Shown here: piece by piece, positions 1 to 49,635 of the stretch
How positions within the stretch are numbered: position 1 is the stretch's first letter
Layout of the letters: each line of letters opens with the position of its first letter
IMG/VR virus record: IMGVR_UViG_3300042542_005523
From: a virus
Taxonomy: Duplodnaviria; Caudoviricetes
Length of the DNA stretch: 64,000 nt
Reading direction: 5' to 3' (one strand)
Notes under the pieces: model-generated
What the model was told of the DNA's origin: nothing
Seen by the model: only the letters and a program-made list of their open reading frames with translations
The model's database searches: none
Made by a program: the position numbers and the translations under genes

Positions 1-198
1 TTCAAGGCGTTTGAGGTTTTTAAGATAAAAATAGGAAAAGCTAAGGTTGTTTTTGGAGTCGAATTACCAGAAAAGGAAAAGTTCCCGAGCGACGAGGATT
101 TTGGTAAATGGGCTTGGACGTATACCGACTACGAGAAAGCTATTGATAGATTCAATAAAATAGAGAACGGAATAGAAGACGATGAAGACAATGAGTAA
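1..198 (+). CDS. 3' part of a hypothetical protein (truncated by window start)
   Basis: Frame 1 is open from base 1 to TAA 196-198 (FKAFEVFKIK...FPSDEDFGKWAWTY...EDNE*). Its stop overlaps the next ATG at 191. Not in the ORF track because it has no start codon in the window. Confidence 0.75.
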   Translation, partial: FKAFEVFKIKIGKAKVVFGVELPEKEKFPSDEDFGKWAWTYTDYEKAIDRFNKIENGIEDDEDNE

Positions 199-724
199 AA
201 AAAGAGTTATAATAGCAGGAAAGGGAGCTTCTGGCAAGGACCACTTGAGAAAGATGATGGTTGAGGAGGGCTTCAATTATTGTGTTTCACATACAACTAG
301 ACCTATAAGATCTGACGAGGAAGAGGGCATAGATTACTATTTCATAAAGGAGTCCGATGCTTATGGGATGATACTGGAAGATCTTTTTTTGGAGCACACC
401 ATATTTAATGGATGGGTTTACGGAACGAGTAAATCGGAGTTTCACAAATCTAATTTATTTATAATGACACCTTCTGGAATTTCTCAGTTATCACCTGAAG
501 ACAGAAGCGAGTCCATTATTCTCTATGTTGACATCGACGAGAATATAAGAAGAGATAGAATGTCTATGAGAAGAGATGCAGACGACGTTGACCGTAGAAT
601 AAAGGCAGACGAGAAAGACTTCTTGAATTTTATAGATTACGATTCCTCTATAACTGATCCTGCATTTAACAGGATACCGAAGGAACTATATAGTGTATTG
701 AAAAAAATAGAACAGAATGATTAA
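191..724 (+). CDS. gmk: guanylate kinase-like nucleoside monophosphate kinase
   Basis: P-loop GKGASGKD, VSHTTRPIR..E.EGIDYYF and LEH..FNGWVYGT are Gmk family motifs. ATG 191 (overlapping the upstream stop) preferred over 182. Confidence 0.85.
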   Translation: MSKKRVIIAGKGASGKDHLRKMMVEEGFNYCVSHTTRPIRSDEEEGIDYYFIKESDAYGMILEDLFLEHTIFNGWVYGTSKSEFHKSNLFIMTPSGISQLSPEDRSESIILYVDIDENIRRDRMSMRRDADDVDRRIKADEKDFLNFIDYDSSITDPAFNRIPKELYSVLKKIEQND

Positions 725-2308: not shown

Positions 2309-2860
2309 ATGAGGAAAGAGCATTCAAAACTTATCGATAAAGTTATATCCAGTTTAGATTGGGATTCTATTTTTGAGGTCTATAAGGCATTCAAAATGGG
2401 AATAGGCGAGGGTAGCAACGTTATACCTGGCATTAAAAGAAAACCTTTTAGCGATTCTCTTACCAAGAATGACATAAAGGGAGAGCTTAAGACTATACTA
2501 AAACAGGTAATAGACGGAGATATATCCGACATAACATACGGTCCTTGGATCATAAACTGGGACAATGGCGACTGGGAGCCTGTTGAGGATGAGATGGACG
2601 AGGATATCGATGACCAGGAGGAGGAAAATATTGAAGATCCTAATATAGTAAATTCAAGGCTTGAGGTTATCTATGCACCTCAACGAATAGCCCTTATAAT
2701 TAACTCATTAAAGGATGAACAACCCGAGGGAGAACTCAATGACTCTTATTTAATAGAGAGCTTGATGCAGAAAGCTATTAAGAATGAGGATTATGAACTA
2801 GCTTCTAAATTCAGGGACATTTTGAAGCATCAGGATAAAGAACAAAGTTCTGATATATAG
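2309..2860 (+). CDS. hypothetical protein with acidic linker and C-terminal UVR (UvrB/UvrC-type) coiled-coil motif
   Basis: C-terminal LMQKAIKNEDYELASKFRDIL matches the UVR consensus L..A...E.YE.AA..RD.I. Confidence 0.65.
   Translation: MRKEHSKLIDKVISSLDWDSIFEVYKAFKMGIGEGSNVIPGIKRKPFSDSLTKNDIKGELKTILKQVIDGDISDITYGPWIINWDNGDWEPVEDEMDEDIDDQEEENIEDPNIVNSRLEVIYAPQRIALIINSLKDEQPEGELNDSYLIESLMQKAIKNEDYELASKFRDILKHQDKEQSSDI
2852..2859 (+). promoter_or_regulatory. putative late promoter GATATATA
   Basis: Exact recurrent motif, but only 4 nt before GTG 2864. Confidence 0.5.
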
Positions 2861-2863
2861 TAG

Positions 2864-5040: not shown

Positions 5041-5820
5041 GTGGTTTTTAATTTCAAAAGTTATCTAAAAGAATCTAAAAGTCCCTTCTATAACGAAGAA
5101 CTTTGCCCTCTTTTTTGGGAAAAAGAAGGAGATGGCAAGGAGTTAGAGTGGAAGCTAGATCCTCTTGTAGGAAAGAAACTTCTGGATATAGCGAATGATT
5201 TTATAGAGGAAGGTTCGGATGTGCTAAAGAAAAAGGATGTTTTGGACATTCAGCTTGTTGGGTCCTTAACTGGTTATAACTGGAACCAGTATTCTGATCT
5301 GGATCTACATATTATTGTAAATTTCAAAGACATGGGCGATGATCCTAAAATGATAGACTATGCTATGTATGGTCTAAAATTCTCATGGAACACGAAACAT
5401 GACATAACAATGAGAGGACATGACGTGGAGATAGCAGTACAGGACGAAGGATCGGAAAGCTACATTTCTACGGTATATTCACTTAGCAAGAAGAAATGGA
5501 TTAAGAAACCTAAGTACTCACCACCTAAAATAGATGAGTTTATGGTGAATAAGAAGTTTAATTCTTTGGCTTACGATATAAGTAAGCTTGAAAATAAGCT
5601 AGTACTGGGCAACGTTTTTCCTTCTAACCCCAAGCCTCTGTATAATATGGCTGCTAAGCTAAAATCTAAAATAATGAAAATGAGAAAAGAGTCCTTATCA
5701 AAAGGAGGGGAATTCTCTGTTGGCAACCTGGTCTTTAAGAAACTCAGATCTGAAGGATATATAGGTAAATTGATCGATACGATCACGAAGTCATACGATA
5801 AAATATACACAATAAAATAA
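5041..5820 (+). CDS. Pol-beta superfamily nucleotidyltransferase
   Basis: GSLTGYNWNQYSDLDLH (GS..DxD) plus DVEIAVQDE; GTG start; N-terminus MVFNFKSYLKES. Confidence 0.85.
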   Translation: MVFNFKSYLKESKSPFYNEELCPLFWEKEGDGKELEWKLDPLVGKKLLDIANDFIEEGSDVLKKKDVLDIQLVGSLTGYNWNQYSDLDLHIIVNFKDMGDDPKMIDYAMYGLKFSWNTKHDITMRGHDVEIAVQDEGSESYISTVYSLSKKKWIKKPKYSPPKIDEFMVNKKFNSLAYDISKLENKLVLGNVFPSNPKPLYNMAAKLKSKIMKMRKESLSKGGEFSVGNLVFKKLRSEGYIGKLIDTITKSYDKIYTIK

Positions 5821-5832
5821 AGTAAATAAATT

Positions 5833-8430
5833 ATGTACGTAATAATTCCTAATGGTACTCTTAGTAAAGGCGATCCATTCCCGATGGTAGACATTCCAAC
5901 TGACGTAAATGGACCAGACTATACGGATTTTGAATTGGAGGATTTCCAGTGGTGGGCATATAGCAAGCCATTTAACGATTGGTTCAAATCATCAGGGAGA
6001 TCGTGGCAAGCTTCGGAGTCTGAGATAAGAAGTGATGGTGATGCTTTAGTAGAAAGATGGAAGACAGAGAAAGCAAAAGAGGGTAAACCCATAATGAGCT
6101 TTTTGGATTTCGTAAATGAAAGTTTAAGATCTGAGTATATTGAACTTTTTGAAGAAGGACCGGAAGGTGAAACATCAGGAGTTTCTGAAGGAACTGGTAT
6201 AACCCAACAGGATCAAATTAAATTCTTATATGCTTACACTAAGCTAGTTAAACAAGGTGCTATACAGACTACATTCGATATTAGCACAGATTTTAACGAA
6301 GGGGACGAGAAGGCTTTCTTTTTAACTGTTGTTCAAGAGGACGAAGAAGCGCAAGCTTTGAATATGAAGGCTATGAAACTCAAGGCAAAGACTGGAGCCT
6401 CCTCCGGAGCAGGTAGGCTTGCACAAGGTACCGTGATGTATCCAGGTGCTCCATACAAGATACCACCGGAAGCAACGTCTAACTATATAGTAACAAAGAT
6501 TCAACAGGATCTTTCCTCCCTAGGGGTATGGGCATCTGGAATGCTAGCGGGGTGGGGAATTTACACTGTGGCTGGTGTTGCTGGCGGATCTTTTTTACTT
6601 TATAGAGTATTGAATGGGTGGAAATTTTCTTCCGCAGTGGCAGCAATAGGTAATGCAGGTGGACAGACTGCTGCAAAAACAATAGCGGATCTTTTAAAAG
6701 GAGGAAGTGCAGCCAAAAAGGGTACAGGAATTTTTGGAAGACTTGGAAAGATTGGTACATTCGTTTTCAAAGAAGGATTGGGTACTGCAAAGGGGTTTAA
6801 GTCAGCAAGGCAAGCATGGAAATTTGGATCTAAATTAAAGCCAGCCATGAGGGTTTTAAATACAAGTAAAGCTTTCTTAAGAGGTACATCAGCAGCTGCT
6901 ACGAGGGCAATACCCGTTGTTGGATGGGTTCTTCTAGCTGTTGACGCAGTGGGCTCTATGATAAACTGGTACAGCGACAATCAAGCTCCAACACCAGATG
7001 AAGCAGTTGAGCTTTTTGATGGTAAGAAAACTTTTTCGCCTTCATCGATCAATGTTGGCGAATCTATAGTTCTTTGTTGGTCACAGCCTGATGCCTCAGC
7101 ATGGGGTGCAGTTCTTTCTTTCGTTTTCAGCAACGCGGGTGAGACTAGGACAATAATGGAAATGACAAAGATTATAGGTGACGCTTCTGGATATTCCCTA
7201 TTTATATTACAATCAGCTAATTCTTCTGGCCTAAATGAACAAATAAAGGATAGCATGCTAACCCTTGTAGCGGTTCCTAATTCTGCTAAGCTGGAAAACG
7301 GTATTGTTGATAACGATGATTTTTCAGGCAGAATTTGTTCTGTTTCCAAGGAGGACGTTAACGCAGAGGGTGATGCTATACCAGTTCCTTTTGATTTTCA
7401 AGGAGTTTGTAACTGGGATACTTTAGTTAGCGCAGTTGAATCATCGGAAGGTGTAATGTTTAAGTCCGATCCTAACGCTCCAGCTACATACGAATTTAAT
7501 TTCGAGGACATGGACGGGGATAGAATAAACGTTGTTGGAACTTTAGTTACAGACGAGGATCTTGCTAATCTAACCACCGATGATATAGAGAGAATATTCT
7601 ACGGTGGAATTGATACCGGGAACTCTAGGAGAGGCGGGGAAGCTGAGAGTGAAGAGGAGGAAGAAGACATTGAGGATCTAGAAACAGAGGAGACAAACGA
7701 ATCATCTAGAGTGGTTAATTTCGAGAGTTTTAAAAGCGGTAGGCTATACGAGAGTGGAGATGAAGAGGACACTTCTGATGTACTCGATTCTTTTCAAGGT
7801 CCAGCATTTATAGCAATATACGTTTGTGATGAACCAAATAGTAAGGCTTACGCTAGTAGGGAAATTGGGAGAAAGAAGAGACTTCCGCAATTTACTAATT
7901 TCGCAGTAAATCCTGATGACTACAATGCAGGACCAGGAACAACAATAGACGTAGATGTAAACAGCGACGAGGACATAGAGGATCCAAAAGCAGGTTATGC
8001 AGAGTACAGGGAAGGAAGTGAGGTTGACAGAGAGGTGGTGGTTGAAGAGCCTGTGAAAGATGATAAAGAAGAAGGAACGGAGGAAGTTCAGGCAGGTGAC
8101 GGTAAAATAAAAGCTCCTGATATTACAAAGAAGGAAAGAAAGCACAGCACTGTTATTAAAGACGGTGACAAAGACGGTGGGATTAATCTAATGGATGAAT
8201 TCTTGACCACTGAAGACAAGGAAATTTTAGGTATATCTGATTGGGATAAGGTAACTATGGTAAAAGCTAGGTATGATGATAACGGTGAGATATCTAAAAT
8301 TATCGTCAGAAATAAGGATGCTGAATTCATGAAAAAATCAAAAGAATATGTTCCTTCTGATGGAGAATCATTCGAGATTGCAAAAAAATTGCTGCAAAGC
8401 GCGCAAAGTAGGCTCGAAGTTAAAAAATAA
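5833..8430 (+). CDS. 865-aa putative virion (head/ejected) protein with hydrophobic Gly/Ala helices and acidic C-terminal part
   Basis: Long ORF directly upstream of the prohead protease. Hydrophobic segments LGVWASGMLAGWGIYTVAGVAGGSFLLY and AIPVVGWVLLAVDAVG; internal MSFLDFVNES and NFESFKSGRLYES motifs. Confidence 0.55.
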   Translation: MYVIIPNGTLSKGDPFPMVDIPTDVNGPDYTDFELEDFQWWAYSKPFNDWFKSSGRSWQASESEIRSDGDALVERWKTEKAKEGKPIMSFLDFVNESLRSEYIELFEEGPEGETSGVSEGTGITQQDQIKFLYAYTKLVKQGAIQTTFDISTDFNEGDEKAFFLTVVQEDEEAQALNMKAMKLKAKTGASSGAGRLAQGTVMYPGAPYKIPPEATSNYIVTKIQQDLSSLGVWASGMLAGWGIYTVAGVAGGSFLLYRVLNGWKFSSAVAAIGNAGGQTAAKTIADLLKGGSAAKKGTGIFGRLGKIGTFVFKEGLGTAKGFKSARQAWKFGSKLKPAMRVLNTSKAFLRGTSAAATRAIPVVGWVLLAVDAVGSMINWYSDNQAPTPDEAVELFDGKKTFSPSSINVGESIVLCWSQPDASAWGAVLSFVFSNAGETRTIMEMTKIIGDASGYSLFILQSANSSGLNEQIKDSMLTLVAVPNSAKLENGIVDNDDFSGRICSVSKEDVNAEGDAIPVPFDFQGVCNWDTLVSAVESSEGVMFKSDPNAPATYEFNFEDMDGDRINVVGTLVTDEDLANLTTDDIERIFYGGIDTGNSRRGGEAESEEEEEDIEDLETEETNESSRVVNFESFKSGRLYESGDEEDTSDVLDSFQGPAFIAIYVCDEPNSKAYASREIGRKKRLPQFTNFAVNPDDYNAGPGTTIDVDVNSDEDIEDPKAGYAEYREGSEVDREVVVEEPVKDDKEEGTEEVQAGDGKIKAPDITKKERKHSTVIKDGDKDGGINLMDEFLTTEDKEILGISDWDKVTMVKARYDDNGEISKIIVRNKDAEFMKKSKEYVPSDGESFEIAKKLLQSAQSRLEVKK

Positions 8431-8452
8431 GAAGATTTTCTAAAATAGAATT

Positions 8453-8460
8453 GATATATA
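8453..8460 (+). promoter_or_regulatory. putative late promoter GATATATA
   Basis: Upstream of the prohead protease gene. Confidence 0.75.
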
Positions 8461-8486
8461 GAAAATAAGAAAAGAAATATTTATAA

Positions 8487-12341: not shown

Positions 12342-12377
12342 GCCCTAATTTTTTTGCTTCTTTATTTTAAGATTAGT

Positions 12378-12385
12378 GATATATA
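12378..12385 (+). promoter_or_regulatory. putative late promoter GATATATA
   Basis: Between the MCP terminator and ATG 12407, where transcription must restart. Confidence 0.75.
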
Positions 12386-16892: not shown

Positions 16893-16921
16893 GAAAACAA
16901 AACTCATTTTGATGATATAAT
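16893..16921 (+). promoter_or_regulatory. putative early/middle promoter GAAAAC-N17-TATAAT
   Basis: Upstream of the dNMP kinase + asnB pair. Confidence 0.55.
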
Positions 16922-16925
16922 CTTC

Positions 16926-17501
16926 ATGATTATCATATTTGAGGGTTGCAGAAATTCCGGTAAAACATTTCTCAGTAAACAGATATCTGAGGATTTGTAC
17001 ATACCTAGATTCCAATTTGATTTTGTTGAATACTTTAACGGGCTTAATCTAGAAAGCAAAGAAAGCGAATCCGCTCACTCTTTTTCTATGGGCAAGGATT
17101 TAATGTTAATGCAATTAAATCGGGATGGCTTCATACAGGATGATGTTATCATAGATCGTGGATTTCTCACAGTTCTTTCTTGGGGATTGCTAGAGAAAAG
17201 AATAGATCTACCTACTTCAAGGAAGCATCTTGGTCTTTTAAACTCTAATGGCTTAACGAAGGATATTCACATCATTTACATAGAGGGTGATAACCCCGAC
17301 CAATCGGATAGAAATAAGGATATGTGGGATGACGTAGAGAAAACAAACAGTGAGAAGTTTGCTTATGAATTTATACTCCATCAGATATCTTCTGAACACA
17401 CTGACATAAAAGTAACAAGATTCAGAAACGAATTTAATGAACAATCAATACACGATTTAGCAAAAATTATAAAGAATGTGCGGAATAATACTAGCAACTG
17501 A
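16926..17501 (+). CDS. thymidylate-kinase-like P-loop dNMP kinase
   Basis: IIFEGCRNSGKT P-loop and IIDRGF (TMK DR motif). Confidence 0.75.
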   Translation: MIIIFEGCRNSGKTFLSKQISEDLYIPRFQFDFVEYFNGLNLESKESESAHSFSMGKDLMLMQLNRDGFIQDDVIIDRGFLTVLSWGLLEKRIDLPTSRKHLGLLNSNGLTKDIHIIYIEGDNPDQSDRNKDMWDDVEKTNSEKFAYEFILHQISSEHTDIKVTRFRNEFNEQSIHDLAKIIKNVRNNTSN

Positions 17502-18885
17502 ATTTAACTCGACTGAGGAAATATTAAATTCAATCTCTCATAGAGGAATTGAAAGAACCGATAAAAAATTAGAAGGTGTTACACTATGTCATCATAGATT
17601 GCCTATCCAAACAGTGGAAGGTGATAATTGGTACCAACCAAAACAAATATCAGATGGTATCTATATGCTTTTTAATGGTGAGATTTTCAACTACGATACT
17701 AATGCATATTCCTCCGATATAGAGTATCTTTGTAATCTTTTTAGCTCTTATAATTTCGGAGGTGTTGAAATGTTTTCAGCTCTCTTTCTTCCACATATGC
17801 AAACCTGGGATGGTTTTTGGGCTATTGTCATATATGATTCAAAAACAGGAGATGTTATTTGCTTTACTGACCCGTTGGGTAAAAAATGTCTATATGTTAA
17901 TAAAGAAGGTGAGATATCCTCGGAGATAAAAGGTGTGCATCGTCAGGGATATTCCATAGACGATACTTATATTTCTAGCGTTAGAAAGTGGGGTTATAAC
18001 ACTGACAATAGAACTCCTTATAAGGAAATAAAAAGAATACTTCCTAATAACATCTACTCTTTTAACATAGTATCTCCTATGTTCCAACAGGTTTATCAAA
18101 AATACTGGGAGGGATTTGACTCCCCTATTTATGAGCTTCGAGGTAAACCATACGAGGAACACATGGAATGGCTATGGGATAAGATGGTAGAAAGTGTTAA
18201 GAATAGATTACTTAGCAAGAATTACCCAATATCCGCATTAATATCAGGTGGACTCGATTCATCTATTATTGCAGCATTAATGAAATCGGAGTCTATTGAT
18301 AGAATAAACTGGTTCACTATAGAGAATGGCGAAACTGAATATGTCGACCTTCTAGCTAAACACCTTGATATCAAGGTCAATAAGCTAACATACGATATGG
18401 ACGAATCCTTAAACAAGGAGATCTATAAAATATGGAACGAAGGACCAGTCGATCTTGGTTCTGTTATACCACAGTATCATTTATTTAAAGCTGTCAAAGA
18501 ACAGACTGGATATAGAATAGTTATAAGCGGTGATGGCTCTGATGAATTATTTGGTGGATATTCAAGGATACATGAATTTGATTCACAAAAGTCAGATGTT
18601 TTCGAAGAACTTTCTTACTATCACCTGCCACGATTGGACAAGATGAGCATGGCCCATACACTGGAGCTAAGAACCCCATTTTTAAATCTTGACATAGTGC
18701 GATTTGCACTACATTTACCTCTTGAGTGGAGAAAAGATAAGAAGATACTAAAAGATACTTTTTCTCCTATCCTGCCACCCGAGATAGTGGGAAGAAAGAA
18801 AATACCCCTGAAGAACCCACAGATCAAGGAAGATAAAATAGCATATAGACAGAAGGCAATAGATCTTTTTCTTTCTGAAATGTAA
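17476..18885 (+). CDS. asnB: asparagine synthetase B-like glutamine amidotransferase
   Basis: MCGII (Ntn Cys), HHRLPI, FNGEIFNY, SGGLDSS (PP-loop), SGDGSDELFGGY, RLDKMSMAHTLELRTPFL. Overlaps the kinase gene by 26 nt. Confidence 0.9.
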   Translation: MCGIILATEFNSTEEILNSISHRGIERTDKKLEGVTLCHHRLPIQTVEGDNWYQPKQISDGIYMLFNGEIFNYDTNAYSSDIEYLCNLFSSYNFGGVEMFSALFLPHMQTWDGFWAIVIYDSKTGDVICFTDPLGKKCLYVNKEGEISSEIKGVHRQGYSIDDTYISSVRKWGYNTDNRTPYKEIKRILPNNIYSFNIVSPMFQQVYQKYWEGFDSPIYELRGKPYEEHMEWLWDKMVESVKNRLLSKNYPISALISGGLDSSIIAALMKSESIDRINWFTIENGETEYVDLLAKHLDIKVNKLTYDMDESLNKEIYKIWNEGPVDLGSVIPQYHLFKAVKEQTGYRIVISGDGSDELFGGYSRIHEFDSQKSDVFEELSYYHLPRLDKMSMAHTLELRTPFLNLDIVRFALHLPLEWRKDKKILKDTFSPILPPEIVGRKKIPLKNPQIKEDKIAYRQKAIDLFLSEM

Positions 18886-18894
18886 AGGAGCAGT

Positions 18895-18902
18895 GATATA
18901 TA
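18895..18902 (+). promoter_or_regulatory. putative late promoter GATATATA
   Basis: In a 37-nt intergenic gap before ATG 18923. Confidence 0.7.
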
Positions 18903-18922
18903 GACTAAAATAACGTATTTTT

Positions 18923-21018: not shown

Positions 21019-21039
21019 GTTACAAAAAAATCTCAAGAA

Positions 21040-21047
21040 GATATATA
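21040..21047 (+). promoter_or_regulatory. putative late promoter GATATATA
   Basis: In the divergent intergenic region before ATG 21062. Confidence 0.75.
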
Positions 21048-26140: not shown

Positions 26141-26737
26141 ATGGCACTATCAATAGATACTCTTTATAGAAATAAGAACGTTTTTAATCCCAATAAGGAC
26201 CAGATGAATGCAAATCTTGGTATATGGGATCTTACTAAATCATCACTTAACTATTTGAATGTAAACGTTCAGATAAATTCTATTTATATGCTTAGTGATG
26301 ATGACACGATGAGGCCTGATATAATAGCAGCAGCAAAATACGGGGACCAGTCTTTAATGGGGTCTCTTTGTAAATTTAATAGCATAGCGAATCCATTTGC
26401 GATAGGATCTGGCCAATTCTTATATTTACCTAAGGTATCAACATTTGAGAATGCATTTGATGTAAAAAAGAATCTAGAAAAAGGGGGGAATACAAACTCT
26501 AGTCCTTCGGATGCATTTAGAAAAAGTCAGGAACAAAAGATAGTAAAGGCAAGTGAGGGTAGGAAAAAATTTGTGGAATCCAAGATAAAAAAACAGCCAG
26601 CACAGATACTACCGCCAAACGTGTCGCAAGCCGGTGAAAGGCCAACGGTAAGAAAGAATGGAATTATAGTATTTGGCCCAGATGCGGGTGGTGGTGGAGT
26701 TAACGGTGTTAATAATTCTAACGGTAATCAGCAATAA
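26141..26737 (+). CDS. gp53: baseplate wedge protein, gp53/LysM-like
   Basis: RPDIIAAAKYGD...LCKFNSIANPFAIGSGQFLYLP matches the gp53/LysM pattern. Confidence 0.7.
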   Translation: MALSIDTLYRNKNVFNPNKDQMNANLGIWDLTKSSLNYLNVNVQINSIYMLSDDDTMRPDIIAAAKYGDQSLMGSLCKFNSIANPFAIGSGQFLYLPKVSTFENAFDVKKNLEKGGNTNSSPSDAFRKSQEQKIVKASEGRKKFVESKIKKQPAQILPPNVSQAGERPTVRKNGIIVFGPDAGGGGVNGVNNSNGNQQ

Positions 26738-26745
26738 ATTTTTAA

Positions 26746-28299
26746 ATGGCTACAATATCTAAAGACCAAATTCAAATAGCAACAGTAGCTAGTAACTCCA
26801 TTAAGCTCGATCAAATAGGGGATCTAGCTAAAACTGCCGAGGGTCAGGGCGAGTTAGAGAAGGATCTAGCCGCTGATAATAGCGACGCTACGCTGGGAAG
26901 TAAGACCCCACTTGTCGTTATTAATGGATATTACGTTACCAAGTATCTTCGGTATTTTAACTTAGATATGAATGGGTTTATGCCCGTTATTAGGCTCAGC
27001 TTCACTGCTATGGAAACTTCATTCCTTTCAGTCAGCTACCCTAAAGATGGCGACATAGTATCCGTTTATATCAGATCGCTGGAGGACGTCTATAAGCCCA
27101 TCAGGATGGATTTTAATATACTTACGGTAGATGCAGAATTGACCTCCAAATTAGCTGATAAAGGAATCGATTCGGATGGACTAGGTCAGAATCTGAAGTT
27201 TAATATCCTTGCAGAATGCAGGGTTCCTGGCATTTATACAAACAGAAGTAAATCTTTTGGTGCTTCGACGTCTTACGATACCCTTTTTCAGGTTGCTCAG
27301 GATCTAGATCTTGGATTTTCTACTAATGATTCGAATCTAAACGATACAATGAACTGGCTTTGCCCAAATTATTCCTATTTCGATTTCGTAAAAGATGTAA
27401 CTAGAGATTCGTATAAAGATGACAATAGCTTCTATATGTCTTTTATAGACTGCTATTATAATCTTAATTTTGTAAATATGGGCAGCCAATTTTTATATAG
27501 CGGTGACCCTGAAGTTGTCGCAATGGTTACATTGGGTCCTGCTAGTGTTACGCCCGATGCTGTGATACCTAGTGCTGCTAACCCCTCACTTAAACAGACG
27601 CCACTTGTTATTAGCAACTCTTGGAAGGCCGGATCTGTACCTTTTGCTTTATCCGGATTCATATTAGTTTCGGGTGCAGGCCAGAAATCAAATAAGACCG
27701 GGTATTTCACAAGAATAACTTATTATGACGAGAATAACCAAACCAGTAATGCAGAGGATAAGATTGTTGGGTATGATATAGAATCAGGAACACCCGATAG
27801 CATAGGGGCCAATACAGTTTTACAAAAAGGTAGAGCTACTGAAGATTTGTATAAAAATGAGAGAAGAATAGAATGGCTGGGCGTTGTGAATGAATATAGT
27901 GAGGATAATCCTGGTACCCATCCCAACTATTTCCACGCTAGATACCAGAATTTAATGAATATAGAAGATGCCACAAAGCTTTTGTTTAAAGTTGAGATGG
28001 TCACCTATTTTGCGGGTATTTATAGAGGACAGGTACTGCCAGTTCAGATGTACGTCTATGGTGCACAAGATAAAAGAAAGGATAACACCGGTACGGTAGA
28101 GAATTACAAGTCAGGTAACTCAGATCAGCCAGTTCTTGATAACTTTCTCTCTGGTAATTATGTGGTTGTTGGTATGGATGTTACTTATGATAGTGCTAGA
28201 GGGATGAGGCAGGTGCTCACTTTAGCTAAGAGACAATGGGATATTAACACATCGGGTATTCTTCAAAAATACTCTCCGTTTCCTCTTGTGGATGTTTAA
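26746..28299 (+). CDS. baseplate hub protein (gp27-like)
   Basis: Position between gp53-like and gp5-like genes; ending FLSGNYVVVGMDVTYD...QVLTLAKR is typical of hub proteins. Confidence 0.55.
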   Translation: MATISKDQIQIATVASNSIKLDQIGDLAKTAEGQGELEKDLAADNSDATLGSKTPLVVINGYYVTKYLRYFNLDMNGFMPVIRLSFTAMETSFLSVSYPKDGDIVSVYIRSLEDVYKPIRMDFNILTVDAELTSKLADKGIDSDGLGQNLKFNILAECRVPGIYTNRSKSFGASTSYDTLFQVAQDLDLGFSTNDSNLNDTMNWLCPNYSYFDFVKDVTRDSYKDDNSFYMSFIDCYYNLNFVNMGSQFLYSGDPEVVAMVTLGPASVTPDAVIPSAANPSLKQTPLVISNSWKAGSVPFALSGFILVSGAGQKSNKTGYFTRITYYDENNQTSNAEDKIVGYDIESGTPDSIGANTVLQKGRATEDLYKNERRIEWLGVVNEYSEDNPGTHPNYFHARYQNLMNIEDATKLLFKVEMVTYFAGIYRGQVLPVQMYVYGAQDKRKDNTGTVENYKSGNSDQPVLDNFLSGNYVVVGMDVTYDSARGMRQVLTLAKRQWDINTSGILQKYSPFPLVDV

Positions 28300-33377: not shown

Positions 33378-33385
33378 GATATATA
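33378..33385 (+). promoter_or_regulatory. putative late promoter GATATATA
   Basis: Upstream of the S1 homolog. Confidence 0.7.
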
Positions 33386-33423
33386 CATAAGAAACTAATA
33401 TTAACCATTTAAAACTAAAATTG

Positions 33424-36804: not shown

Positions 36805-36857
36805 AAAATACACAGTGAGTTTATTGTAGATAGCATTTAGCTCCCTTTATTTTGATC

Positions 36858-36865
36858 GATATATA
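36858..36865 (+). promoter_or_regulatory. putative late promoter GATATATA in hairpin loop
   Basis: Upstream of the gp25-like gene. Confidence 0.7.
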
Positions 36866-44705: not shown

Positions 44706-44723
44706 TCCCTTATTTTTTAATGC

Positions 44724-44731
44724 AATATATA
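44724..44731 (+). promoter_or_regulatory. late-type box variant AATATATA
   Basis: 5 nt before ATG 44737. Confidence 0.45.
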
Positions 44732-49595: not shown

Positions 49596-49603
49596 GATAT
49601 ATA
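49596..49603 (+). promoter_or_regulatory. putative late promoter GATATATA
   Basis: Between phoH and the next structural gene. Confidence 0.75.
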
Positions 49604-49635
49604 ACTCTGAAAAAAGGATAAAAAAATAATAAAAA

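Follow-up and report, generated by a model that had tools for sequence, protein, structure and literature searches.

A conserved kinase and AsnB-like gene pair of huge lake-water phages that probably serves the formation of a modified DNA base

Two overlapping genes of a huge, Lak-related phage from lake water, which encode a P-loop kinase and an AsnB-like enzyme, probably help to make an undescribed modified DNA base and not asparagine. According to the reading that we prefer, and to which we assign a probability of about 60%, this operon encodes two steps of a phage pathway to a non-canonical cytosine-type pyrimidine deoxynucleotide. The reading is supported by genomic context, because all 24 sequence clusters of viral loci with an AsnB-like family member have a kinase and/or a thymidylate synthase (TS) homologue nearby, often together with pyrimidine-nucleotide genes. 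The analyzed stretch of DNA has a length of 64,000 nucleotides and is referred to as the window. In 19 lake-water metagenome runs, 67–100% of its sampled words were present, as counted by word matches and not by read mapping.

Table 1 Features of the kinase/AsnB-like locus, other genes of the window, and gene orders around AsnB-like genes (AsnBL) in metagenome contexts.
Feature	Coordinates in the window	Strand	Basis
P-loop kinase ORF, 191 aa	16926..17501	+	ORF read from sequence; TMK/dNK fold predicted
AsnB-like ORF, 469 aa	17476..18885	+	Pfam, PHROGs and NCBIfam matches; alignments with PDB structures of human ASNS and E. coli AsnB
Overlap of kinase (stop region) and AsnB-like gene (start), 26 nt	17476..17501	+	read from sequence
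Promoter-like box GAAAAC-N17-TATAAT, 4 nt before the kinase ATG	16893..16921	+	read from sequence
GAAAAC part of the box, followed by 17 nt	16893-16898	+	read from sequence
TATAAT part of the box	16916-16921	+	read from sequence
Gmk-like gene	182..724		phrog_1815, 8.6e-34
Prohead protease gene	8487..		
Major capsid protein gene	10534..		
Metagenome context: kinase-AsnBL-dUTPase_2-TS-dCMP deaminase			
Metagenome context: MTase-TS-AsnBL-dUTPase			
Metagenome context: MTase-AsnBL-DCD/dUTPase			
Metagenome context: ThyX...dUTPase-kinase-NTPPase-...-AsnBL-TS-deaminase			
Metagenome context: TS-MTase-AsnBL-dUTPase			
Metagenome context: AsnBL-dUTPase_2-MTase-...-TS			

The first-pass annotation had described a two-gene unit with its own GAAAAC-N17-TATAAT motif, overlapping genes and intact Ntn and PP-loop motifs, set among head genes, and a separate Gmk-like kinase gene at position 191. 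Both open reading frames, their strand, the extent of the overlap and the box were confirmed in the sequence, as were the MCGI start of the AsnB-like protein (with Cys2) and its SGGLDS motif. The Gmk-like gene was recovered as well, at 182..724. The placement among head genes held only in part: the prohead protease and major capsid protein genes are located 4.6–8 kb upstream of the pair, but its immediate neighbors had no family match.

The GAAAAC-N17-TATAAT box is a putative promoter of the gene pair. It occurs once in the window compared to 0.15 expected occurrences, and since 15 of 100 shuffled sequences also contained at least one match, this count by itself is not significant. A bipartite box upstream of the kinase gene recurs in the same register in diverged relatives (L001, L038, L005, and L010), where TATAAT or TATAAA lies 4–5 nt 5' of the kinase ATG, and variant forms are found in L017, L021, and L028. 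Unlike the kinase gene, the flanking genes are preceded by a GATATATAG-type box. The 26-nt overlap is retained in the closest relatives only, whereas the other relatives have a gap of 0–15 nt or an overlap of 1–32 nt. Among the relatives, the junction is always tight, between −32 and +15 nt. The overlap of the two genes in the window suggests that they are translationally coupled.

Kinase and AsnB-like gene were adjacent in each of the 35 related viral contigs. The AsnB-like proteins of these contigs were 66–70% identical, compared to 28–47% for the kinase and the products of the flanking genes, and the AsnB-like gene is among the best-conserved genes of this huge-phage clade. It belongs to a compact family with 238 representative clusters (E<1e-30), whose representatives share 33–55% identity. 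No family members were found in cultured phages, and the family appears to be phage-only and confined to uncultured phages.

The AsnB-like protein consists of an Ntn glutaminase domain (Cys2, HRLPIQT, FNGEIFNY) and a PP-loop adenylating domain (SGGLDS), and it matched the Pfam models Asn_synthase (PF00733, 5.8e-42) and GATase_7/6. C2 and SGGLDS were invariant in both alignments of the family, the signature of which is SGDGSDELFGGY plus YHLPRLDK. An ordinary AMG would be an alternative explanation for such a gene: the enzyme would make asparagine for an Asn-rich proteome, the kinase would be the thymidylate kinase of the phage, and the two would merely share an early or middle operon. Phage asparagine synthases are routinely counted as AMGs (PMC10980836, PMC7412058), and the homology to AsnB is clear. 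The best PDB matches were human ASNS (6gq3) and E. coli AsnB (1ct9). The phage protein has the two-domain architecture of both enzymes as well as their N-terminal Cys nucleophile, R/N/E/D motifs for glutamine binding and SGGLDS PP-loop. Most active-site residues of asparagine synthetases are also retained; among them are the D/E pair that follows G-x-G (D356/E357), R386, and the Lys required for catalysis. Moreover, the phage proteome contains 6.5–6.8% Asn, and a complete relative encodes two tRNA-Asn genes.

Despite these similarities, we regard asparagine synthesis as unlikely. The AsnB-like protein scored below both equivalog cut-offs for asparagine synthases (211.2 bits for TIGR01536 with a cut-off of 267.1, and 145.4 for PRK09431 with a cut-off of 499), and it also matched TIGR03108, TIGR03104, and lasso/lactam cyclase families. 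It is approximately 85–90 residues shorter than AsnB and ASNS, with a truncated C-terminal region. Residues E348 and D384 of E. coli AsnB, which correspond to E364 and D400 of the human enzyme, belong to the pocket that surrounds the aspartyl moiety (PMC6748925). At these two positions the protein encoded in the window has D353 and H383, respectively. An Asp replaces the Glu in 130 of 137 family representatives and in all 79 viral loci, with Glu in none, and His occupies the position of the pocket Asp in 109 of the 137 representatives and 78 of the 79 viral loci. As judged from the alignments, the family departs from true asparagine synthetases at these two pocket residues, with GDG in place of GEG and a His in place of the Asp. 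AlphaFold modeled the AsnB-like protein with a pLDDT of 57, which is too poor for an analysis of fold or pocket.

The gene neighborhoods also argue against asparagine as the product. Among the 24 clusters, into which the 79 viral loci were grouped by sequence, the kinase gene is located directly upstream of the AsnB-like gene in 18 and a TS homologue occurs within 7 kb in eight, while none lacks both. Genes for a dCTPase-like NTP-PPase, dUTPase, dCMP deaminase, and a C5-methylase-like protein are frequent companions, and six of seven metagenome look-ups revealed pyrimidine-nucleotide genes near the AsnB-like gene (Table 1). This linkage recurs on unrelated phage backbones, including phages of ~36 kb with few metabolic genes. 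As a caveat, nucleotide-metabolism genes of phages cluster through timing as well as through a common pathway.

In the TS homologues, the catalytic Cys and the RSxD motif are conserved and Asp stands at the position of ThyA N177, which marks these proteins as cytosine-type; they co-occur with ThyA or ThyX. A search for thymidylate synthase-like genes elsewhere in the genome, as advised in the first-pass annotation, was run in relatives of the phage. All six relatives that are at least 79% complete (G002–G005, G007, and G008) encode a second TS homologue of this kind, again with Asp in place of N177. None was found in the nearest fragments (G001 and G010–G012), which are 7–20% complete, so that its absence there is uninformative. 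Within the huge-phage clade, ~100 kb separate the TS homologue from the gene pair, and the linkage there therefore amounts to co-presence only. One of these relatives, G002, encodes a dCMP deaminase (26668-27237, E 2e-32) and has a weak match to NTP-PPase (E 2e-4); the smaller phages have clear matches to dCMP deaminase and dCTP/dUTP pyrophosphatase.

The kinase contains a P-loop (GCRNSGKT) and a DRG motif, and FEGxRNSGK(T/S), DRG, WG, and NPxxxxRxKDxWD are invariant in its family. Its AF2 model (pLDDT 89) was compared by Foldseek and VIA, with the highest similarity to the thymidylate kinases (TMK) of vaccinia virus (Z 16.2, rmsd 3.0, 176 aligned residues) and S. aureus (15.4). Human dGK (Z 14.5) and NadR RNK (14.3) followed less than 2 Z units behind vaccinia TMK, and the predicted fold is of the thymidylate-kinase/deoxynucleoside-kinase type. 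On the basis of this fold alone, the protein is a candidate kinase for a (modified) dNMP. PDB searches with the single sequence and a profile retrieved no match, and Pfam searches yielded only AAA_14 (21.8 bits, below the cut-off) and Torsin, with no match to the thymidylate kinase model PF02223. Residues 1–87 matched phrog_761 ‘thymidylate kinase’ (E 1.6e-5). This PHROG is also matched by kinases from cytosine-modification cassettes of cultured phages, which are built on the same logic and comprise a phrog_761 kinase, an NTP-PPase, an unknown gene, a TS homologue, and a dCMP deaminase; the kinases of Serbin, Strzyga, and Zuko matched it with E-values of 2e-23 to 2e-11. In hhalign, the alignment of our kinase family matched the cassette kinase of Serratia phage Serbin (gp53) with 91% probability over 138 columns, while the ‘X’ gene of the Serbin cassette had no similarity to the TS-like profile. 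A complex prediction for kinase and AsnB-like protein scored 0.01, which gives no verdict and counts neither for nor against contact. The relatives encode ThyA, and no PF02223 kinase was found in them. Together with the fold, this fits the pathway that we prefer, but it also supports the assignment as a thymidylate kinase in an asparagine-producing operon, since the relatives need a TMK analogue anyway.

Taken as a pathway to a cytosine-type deoxynucleotide, the gene pair, with its putative own promoter and translational coupling, would act downstream of the cytosine-type TS homologue, which is encoded elsewhere as seen in the relatives and would form a C5-substituted dCMP. Cys2 of the AsnB-like enzyme would then hydrolyze glutamine, and the ammonia would pass to the PP-loop site, where ATP would activate a nucleotide-borne group instead of aspartate as an adenylate. 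This would give rise to an amide- or amine-bearing nucleotide. Finally, the TMK-fold kinase would phosphorylate the modified dNMP, which host kinases may refuse, for entry into DNA. The substrate, the order of the steps, the target (free nucleotide or DNA), and the timing of the promoter are parts of the pathway that we infer. More tentatively than for the pathway as a whole, and at less than even odds, we propose that the GDG/His AsnB-like protein performs the tailoring step of a pre-replicative pathway that has yet to be described. With glutamine and ATP, the enzyme would equip a C5-substituted cytosine nucleotide with an amide or amino group. All AsnB-type enzymes known to us activate a carboxylate, and no gene for adding a carboxylate to a base was found. 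Oxidation by TET/JBP to a carboxylated cytosine found no backing either, as five relatives had no match at or above the family cut-off and G003 had a weak sub-threshold match (E 0.03, 11 bits). The original proposal of a nucleotide modification cassette is thus supported in part. The neighbors (kinase, TS, dUTPase, NTP-PPase, deaminase, and methylase) and the pocket changes link the conserved gene pair to the modification of pyrimidine deoxynucleotides, whereas the carboxylated nucleotide substrate and the amide-modified base are unsupported.

Amination of a ring carbonyl, as catalyzed by GMP synthetase, CTP synthase, and TilS, would not require a carboxylated intermediate. Here, dTMP or 5-hydroxymethyl-dUMP would be converted to a 5-substituted dCMP before phosphorylation by the kinase. 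Nucleobase carbonyls are adenylated by GMPS, TilS, and ThiI, which are PP-loop enzymes with a relationship to the synthetase domain of AsnB, and the dUMP/dTMP pool is fed by enzymes encoded in the cassettes, namely dCMP deaminase, DCD/dUTPase, and members of the TS family. We nevertheless consider this route quite improbable, as the associated TS homologue, with its cytosine-type Asp, would already act on dCMP, and we know of no AsnB-type enzyme that aminates a ring carbonyl. Another possible role is the amidation of a non-nucleotide carboxylate such as a glycan uronic acid, a peptidoglycan precursor, or a peptide. Many AsnB paralogues act on substrates other than aspartate, and the matches to TIGR03108, TIGR03104, and the cyclase families fit this role. 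We consider it very unlikely, because genes for glycans, the cell wall, or peptides are absent next to the AsnB-like gene in all 24 clusters and the recurring partners, whose presence would be coincidental, are all pyrimidine-nucleotide enzymes. A role in NAD synthesis (a NadR-like riboside kinase with NadE-like amidation of NaMN) was weakened by the phosphoribosyltransferase of the relatives (phrog_448, 2e-157), which is of the nicotinamide and not the nicotinate type, so that no amidation step is needed.

The cytosine-type pathway that we favor has its closest counterparts in phages that replace cytosine. Phage T4 uses the gp56 dCTPase, gp42 dCMP hydroxymethylase, gp1 dNMP kinase, and cd deaminase for this purpose. 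RB69 and DLP3 possess a 5-hydroxy-dCMP synthase with a cognate dNMP kinase, and such kinases are required by phage TS homologues for the presence of modified C in DNA (PMC13326640). The gene sets seen in relatives and in other phages with an AsnB-like gene follow a similar logic, with a TS-fold enzyme that has the cytosine-type residue, an NTP pyrophosphatase, a dCMP deaminase, a dUTPase, and a putative dedicated dNMP kinase, but the known pathways contain no AsnB-type amidotransferase. The kinase also differs, being TMK-fold and phrog_761-like, and T4 gp1 was absent among its best 50 structural matches. The TS homologue retains D169 and therefore lacks the D169N signature of 5-hydroxy-dCMP synthases (PMC13326640).

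Thymidine hypermodification clusters likewise pair a P-loop kinase (5-HMUDK) with aGPT-Pplase and tailoring enzymes, and uncharacterized amidoligase or amidotransferase genes accompany them (PMC8989533). In contrast to these clusters, the TS homologue here is cytosine-type and not a dUMP hydroxymethylase, and the kinase was rejected as a 5-HMUDK since its hhalign match to M6 gp54 covers 19 columns of the P-loop only. The ‘amidotransferase/amidoligase’ genes of LUZ24-like phages lack an Asn_synthase domain and represent a different system. AsnB-type amidotransferases are embedded in DNA-modification gene clusters of two cultured phages, namely in the QueC-AsnB-TGT-QueE-FolE 7-deazaguanine cluster of Achromobacter phage Motura and between two methyltransferases and ParB-like genes of Streptomyces phage TurkishDelight. 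These proteins are only 23–25% identical to the AsnB-like protein of the window, keep the GEG motif, and do not have the His signature. A 7-deazaguanine pathway as in Motura found no match to PF01702 (TGT/DpdA) in G002–G005, where the matches to PF06508 (QueC) were sub-threshold and fell on the PP-loop of the AsnB-like protein itself. In the literature searched, no AsnB-type enzyme was described from cytosine or thymidine modification cassettes.

Modified bases decide which restriction and CRISPR defenses work against a phage, and new DNA chemistry and new enzymes can be drawn from them. Pyrimidine pathways known so far employ TS-fold enzymes, kinases, glycosyltransferases, and amino-acid transferases; to our knowledge, an AsnB-type glutamine-dependent amidotransferase has been assigned to none of them. 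Phage ‘asparagine synthase’ matches that are assigned to the amino-acid AMGs may thus be wrongly classified. If our more tentative proposal of a tailoring enzyme is correct, the AsnB-like protein would be the first AsnB-type amidotransferase that acts on a nucleotide. The DNA packaged by the abundant huge phages of lake water, and by many smaller phages that are uncultured, would in that case contain a new nitrogen-bearing derivative of cytosine.

Family membership and gene context, both read from sequence, are in our view the decisive evidence on the pair formed by the kinase and the AsnB-like gene. The first-pass annotation had described this pair as two ORFs overlapping by 26 nt, with intact Ntn and PP-loop motifs and a GAAAAC-N17-TATAAT motif of their own, and separate from a Gmk-like kinase gene; each of these features was recovered in the window, which also encodes exonucleases. 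Lak megaphages and a 462-kb uncultured phage have capsid proteins 42–44% identical to that of the window. The AsnB-like gene was found on 35 viral contigs of up to 373 kb (66–92% identity), always with the kinase directly upstream (35/35), in a conserved gene order, the two genes overlapping by up to 32 nt or lying up to 15 nt apart. In the complete relative G002 (373,485 bp), the 42–110 kb region is collinear with the window, and identities to the window are 82% for the capsid protein, 66.7% for the AsnB-like protein, 65.5% for the protease, 46% for the kinase and 27–44% for the immediate neighbours of the pair. DNA matching the window was listed for 19 lake-water metagenome runs (2020–2025) at 67–100% of sampled words, these being word matches only, and five of these runs may be the source sample.

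Coordinates of features in the window, in G002 and in cultured phages
Feature	Location	Remarks
Gmk-like kinase	window 182..724	family match
Prohead protease	window 8487..
T4-type major capsid protein	window 10534..
GAAAAC-N17-TATAAT box	window 16893-16921	from sequence; last base 4 nt ahead of kinase ATG
Kinase ORF	window 16926..17501 (+)	191 aa, Walker A motif
AsnB-like ORF	window 17476..18885 (+)	469 aa, MCGI start, SGGLDS
GATATATA(G/A)-type boxes	window 2850-2863, 8450-8470, 12370-12385, 18895-18905, 21035-21045, 33380-33395, 36850-36862, 44715-44730, 49600-49612
TS homologue	L059:1224-2000 (G002 161224-162003)	also G003, G004, G005, G007, G008
Genes around TS homologue	G002 154303-155766 (L058); 160123-161153, 166526-167584 (L059)
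Sulfotransferase-like gene and followers	G002 5635-7309 (L051)
NAD-related cluster	G002 235356-238180 (L062), 241797-242306 (L063)
tRNA genes	G002 303-335 kb
Cultured-phage cassettes	L180 (Serbin 34.5-37.5 kb), L181 (Strzyga), L182 (Zuko)
Distant AsnB-like genes	L072 (Motura 17.4-23.2 kb), L074 (TurkishDelight 88-93.5 kb)

The GAAAAC-N17-TATAAT box occurs once in the window against 0.15 expected occurrences and is therefore not significant alone. It is conserved upstream of the kinase, in identical register, in relatives whose kinases are just 40–63% identical. The genes flanking the pair have a different, GATATATAG-type box, and the kinase box of several relatives is immediately preceded by a T-rich stretch or by a hairpin with a T-run. 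We infer that the pair is a separate transcription unit of a class unlike its late-looking neighbours. A GATATATA(G/A)-type box, which resembles a T4-style late promoter, is repeated 15–30 nt upstream of many structural-looking genes of the window. In a second gene class (2309, 3397, 16926, 20251 minus strand), TATAAT lies 1–12 nt ahead of the start codon, suggesting that leaders are very short or missing.

The AsnB-like protein matches Pfam Asn_synthase (5.8e-42), GATase_7/6 and phrog_16728, and scores 211 bits against TIGR01536 (NCBIfam), under the cut-off of 267 bits. Its glutaminase and PP-loop motifs are all invariant within the clade. Most of the C-terminal part of AsnB is missing from it. 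Aligned with human ASNS and E. coli AsnB, it retains the catalytic Lys, R386 and D356/E357, and has Asp in place of the SGEG Glu (E348/E364) and His in place of the YD/FD-motif Asp (D384/D400). The resulting GDG was present in 79/79 viral loci and 130 of the 137 representatives, with Glu never seen at that position, and the His in 78/79 loci and 109/137 representatives. A full-library search for the family yielded 238 representative clusters (E<1e-30) of uniformly compact proteins (~420–490 aa), 33–55% identical. No family member was found in cultured phages, the best matches among 50,697 phage records being 22–28% identical; the AsnB-like proteins of the cultured phages Motura, TurkishDelight and S-SCSM2R retain GEG and lack the His.

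Gene neighbourhoods were compared for seven metagenomic representatives of the family and for 79 loci, which were retrieved from a viral contig collection by a family-alignment scan, annotated with local HMMs and grouped into 24 clusters at 80% identity. The kinase lies directly upstream of the AsnB-like gene in 18 of the 24 clusters and a TS homologue (a thymidylate-synthase homologue of cytosine type) within 7 kb in eight, and every cluster has at least one of the two. The largest cluster comprises 35 loci (within L100–L138, L175), mostly on ~36-kb contigs and many from one sample; 29 of them show the module in its most compact form, NTP-PPase – TS homologue – AsnB-like – dUTPase without the kinase.

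Gene orders on the contigs of seven representatives of the AsnB-like family
Representative	Identity	Gene order	Remarks
P0245	49%	kinase homologue – AsnB-like – dUTPase_2-like – TS homologue – dCMP deaminase	kinase-alignment (A1) HMM E 7e-34, 16-nt overlap
P0249	48%	ThyX, RNR, dUTPase, kinase homologue, NTP-PPase, ..., AsnB-like – TS homologue – dCMP deaminase	kinase homologue 4e-23
P0256	43%	C5-methylase-like – TS homologue – AsnB-like – dUTPase
P0264	41%	methylase-like – AsnB-like – DCD/dUTPase
P0291	39%	TS homologue – methylase – AsnB-like – dUTPase
P0341	35%	AsnB-like – dUTPase_2-like – C5-methylase-like ... TS homologue	small siphovirus-type contig
P0387	33%	neighbours not recognisable

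The thymidylate synthase-like gene that the first-pass annotation had proposed to look for is encoded by all six relatives that are at least 79% complete, with 75–100% identity to the G002 copy (measured for G005, G007 and G008). The protein is compact (231–268 aa; 259–265 aa in the huge-phage clade), matches phrog_160 at 4e-26, carries its catalytic Cys in an R-x-P-C-(T/S) motif with an Arg three residues ahead of the Cys, and has RSxD, a retained D169 and Asp where ThyA has N177. Which substrate is selected depends on this last position, dUMP with Asn and dCMP with Asp, as established for ThyA N177 and T4 gp42 D179. The role of N177 in substrate specificity has been restated, and D169N described as a mark of 5-hydroxy-dCMP synthases (PMC13326640), from which the TS homologues differ by lacking D169N. 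Since ThyA (G002) or ThyX (L096) is also present, the TS homologue is not needed for dTMP synthesis; in the huge-phage clade, it is encoded along with a 406-aa ThyA that has a long insertion. Its conservation beside ThyA, with Asp at the N177 position, predicts a C5-modified cytosine in this clade. G002 also encodes a dCMP deaminase, and its NTP-PPase match is weak. Around its TS homologue lie genes for a RimK-like ATP-grasp ligase, an MGS-like domain protein, a metallophosphoesterase and an IMPDH/GMP-reductase-family protein.

Other regions of G002 contain 33 tRNA genes, including two tRNA-Asn(GTT) and four tRNA-Met(CAT), and a sulfotransferase-like gene followed by genes for an APS-kinase-like P-loop protein and a small cytidylyltransferase-fold protein, which may form a phage-encoded sulfation (PAPS) module. 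An NAD-related cluster encodes a phrog_1017 protein taken, on the basis of its sequence, for a candidate NADAR-like protein, a nucleoside 2-deoxyribosyltransferase-like protein and a nicotinamide phosphoribosyltransferase (phrog_448, 2e-157), with a second deoxyribosyltransferase-like gene nearby.

The kinase ORF had no above-threshold family match, with AAA_14 and phrog_761 ‘thymidylate kinase’ (1.6e-5) below threshold, and PDB sequence searches, including a profile search, matched no entry. Across 18 aligned homologues, FEGxRNSGK(T/S), DRG, WG and NPxxxxRxKDxWD are invariant. A confident AlphaFold model (pLDDT 89) matched the thymidylate kinases of vaccinia (Z 16.2, rmsd 3.0 over 176 residues) and S. 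aureus (Z 15.4), human deoxyguanosine kinase (Z 14.5) and the NadR ribosylnicotinamide kinase domain (Z 14.3), and ESM Atlas searches by language model and by shape placed it in the same TMK/dNK/AAA_28 neighbourhood. The fold supports a predicted nucleoside or nucleotide kinase. A role as 5-hmdU DNA kinase was rejected, the alignment with M6 gp54 being restricted to the P-loop. PF02223 thymidylate kinase was absent from the four relatives searched (92–100% complete), where the sole weak match was an adenylate kinase; all four encode ThyA.

Context and motifs suggest a pathway in which the TS homologue would form a C5-substituted dCMP and the AsnB-like enzyme, with ammonia from glutamine and ATP-dependent adenylation, would create an amide or amino function on a nucleotide-borne group; the TMK-fold kinase would then take the modified dNMP to the diphosphate. 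AsnB chemistry requires a carboxylate. No enzyme creating one on a base was found, and the TET/JBP search in the relatives gave one weak match, in one relative, below the family cut-off. In the main alternative, the AsnB-like enzyme would aminate a ring carbonyl in the manner of GMPS or TilS. A plain asparagine synthetase would suit the Asn-rich proteome (6.5–6.8%; 6.5% in G002) and the two tRNA-Asn genes of the relative, but is improbable, as it leaves both the GDG/His signature and the gene neighbourhoods unexplained.

The gene set behind the pathway favoured here has partial counterparts in cultured phages. Among their records, 121 contain relatives of the TS homologue (41–47% identity), annotated as ‘thymidylate synthase’. 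Serratia phage Serbin, Brevundimonas phage Strzyga and Streptomyces phage Zuko share the order phrog_761 kinase – NTP-PPase – 269–353 aa gene – TS homologue – (dCMP deaminase) – DNA polymerase I, in which the 269–353 aa gene matched nothing in Pfam and showed no detectable resemblance to the TS profile. Because these cassettes carry a phrog_761 kinase, and that of Serbin aligns with the kinase family described here (hhalign probability 91%), the kinase of the pair is taken to be a probable member of the cassette kinase family. As the cultured-phage cassettes share kinase and TS homologue without an AsnB-like family member, the tailoring component contributed by the AsnB-like gene appears to be variable and confined to uncultured lineages. 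Distant AsnB-like genes likewise occur in DNA-modification contexts, in Achromobacter phage Motura inside a 7-deazaguanine cluster (QueC-AsnB-TGT-QueE-GTP cyclohydrolase) and in Streptomyces phage TurkishDelight between two methyltransferases, adjoining ParB-like genes.

Amidotransferases beside thymidine-hypermodification genes have been noticed and left unstudied (PMC8989533), and the literature searched contained no account of an AsnB-type enzyme within a cassette of the cytosine or TS-homologue type. The strategy itself has precedent in T4, XP12-type phages and RB69, which combine a TS-fold enzyme with a pyrophosphatase, a deaminase and a kinase dedicated to the pathway (PMC13326640).
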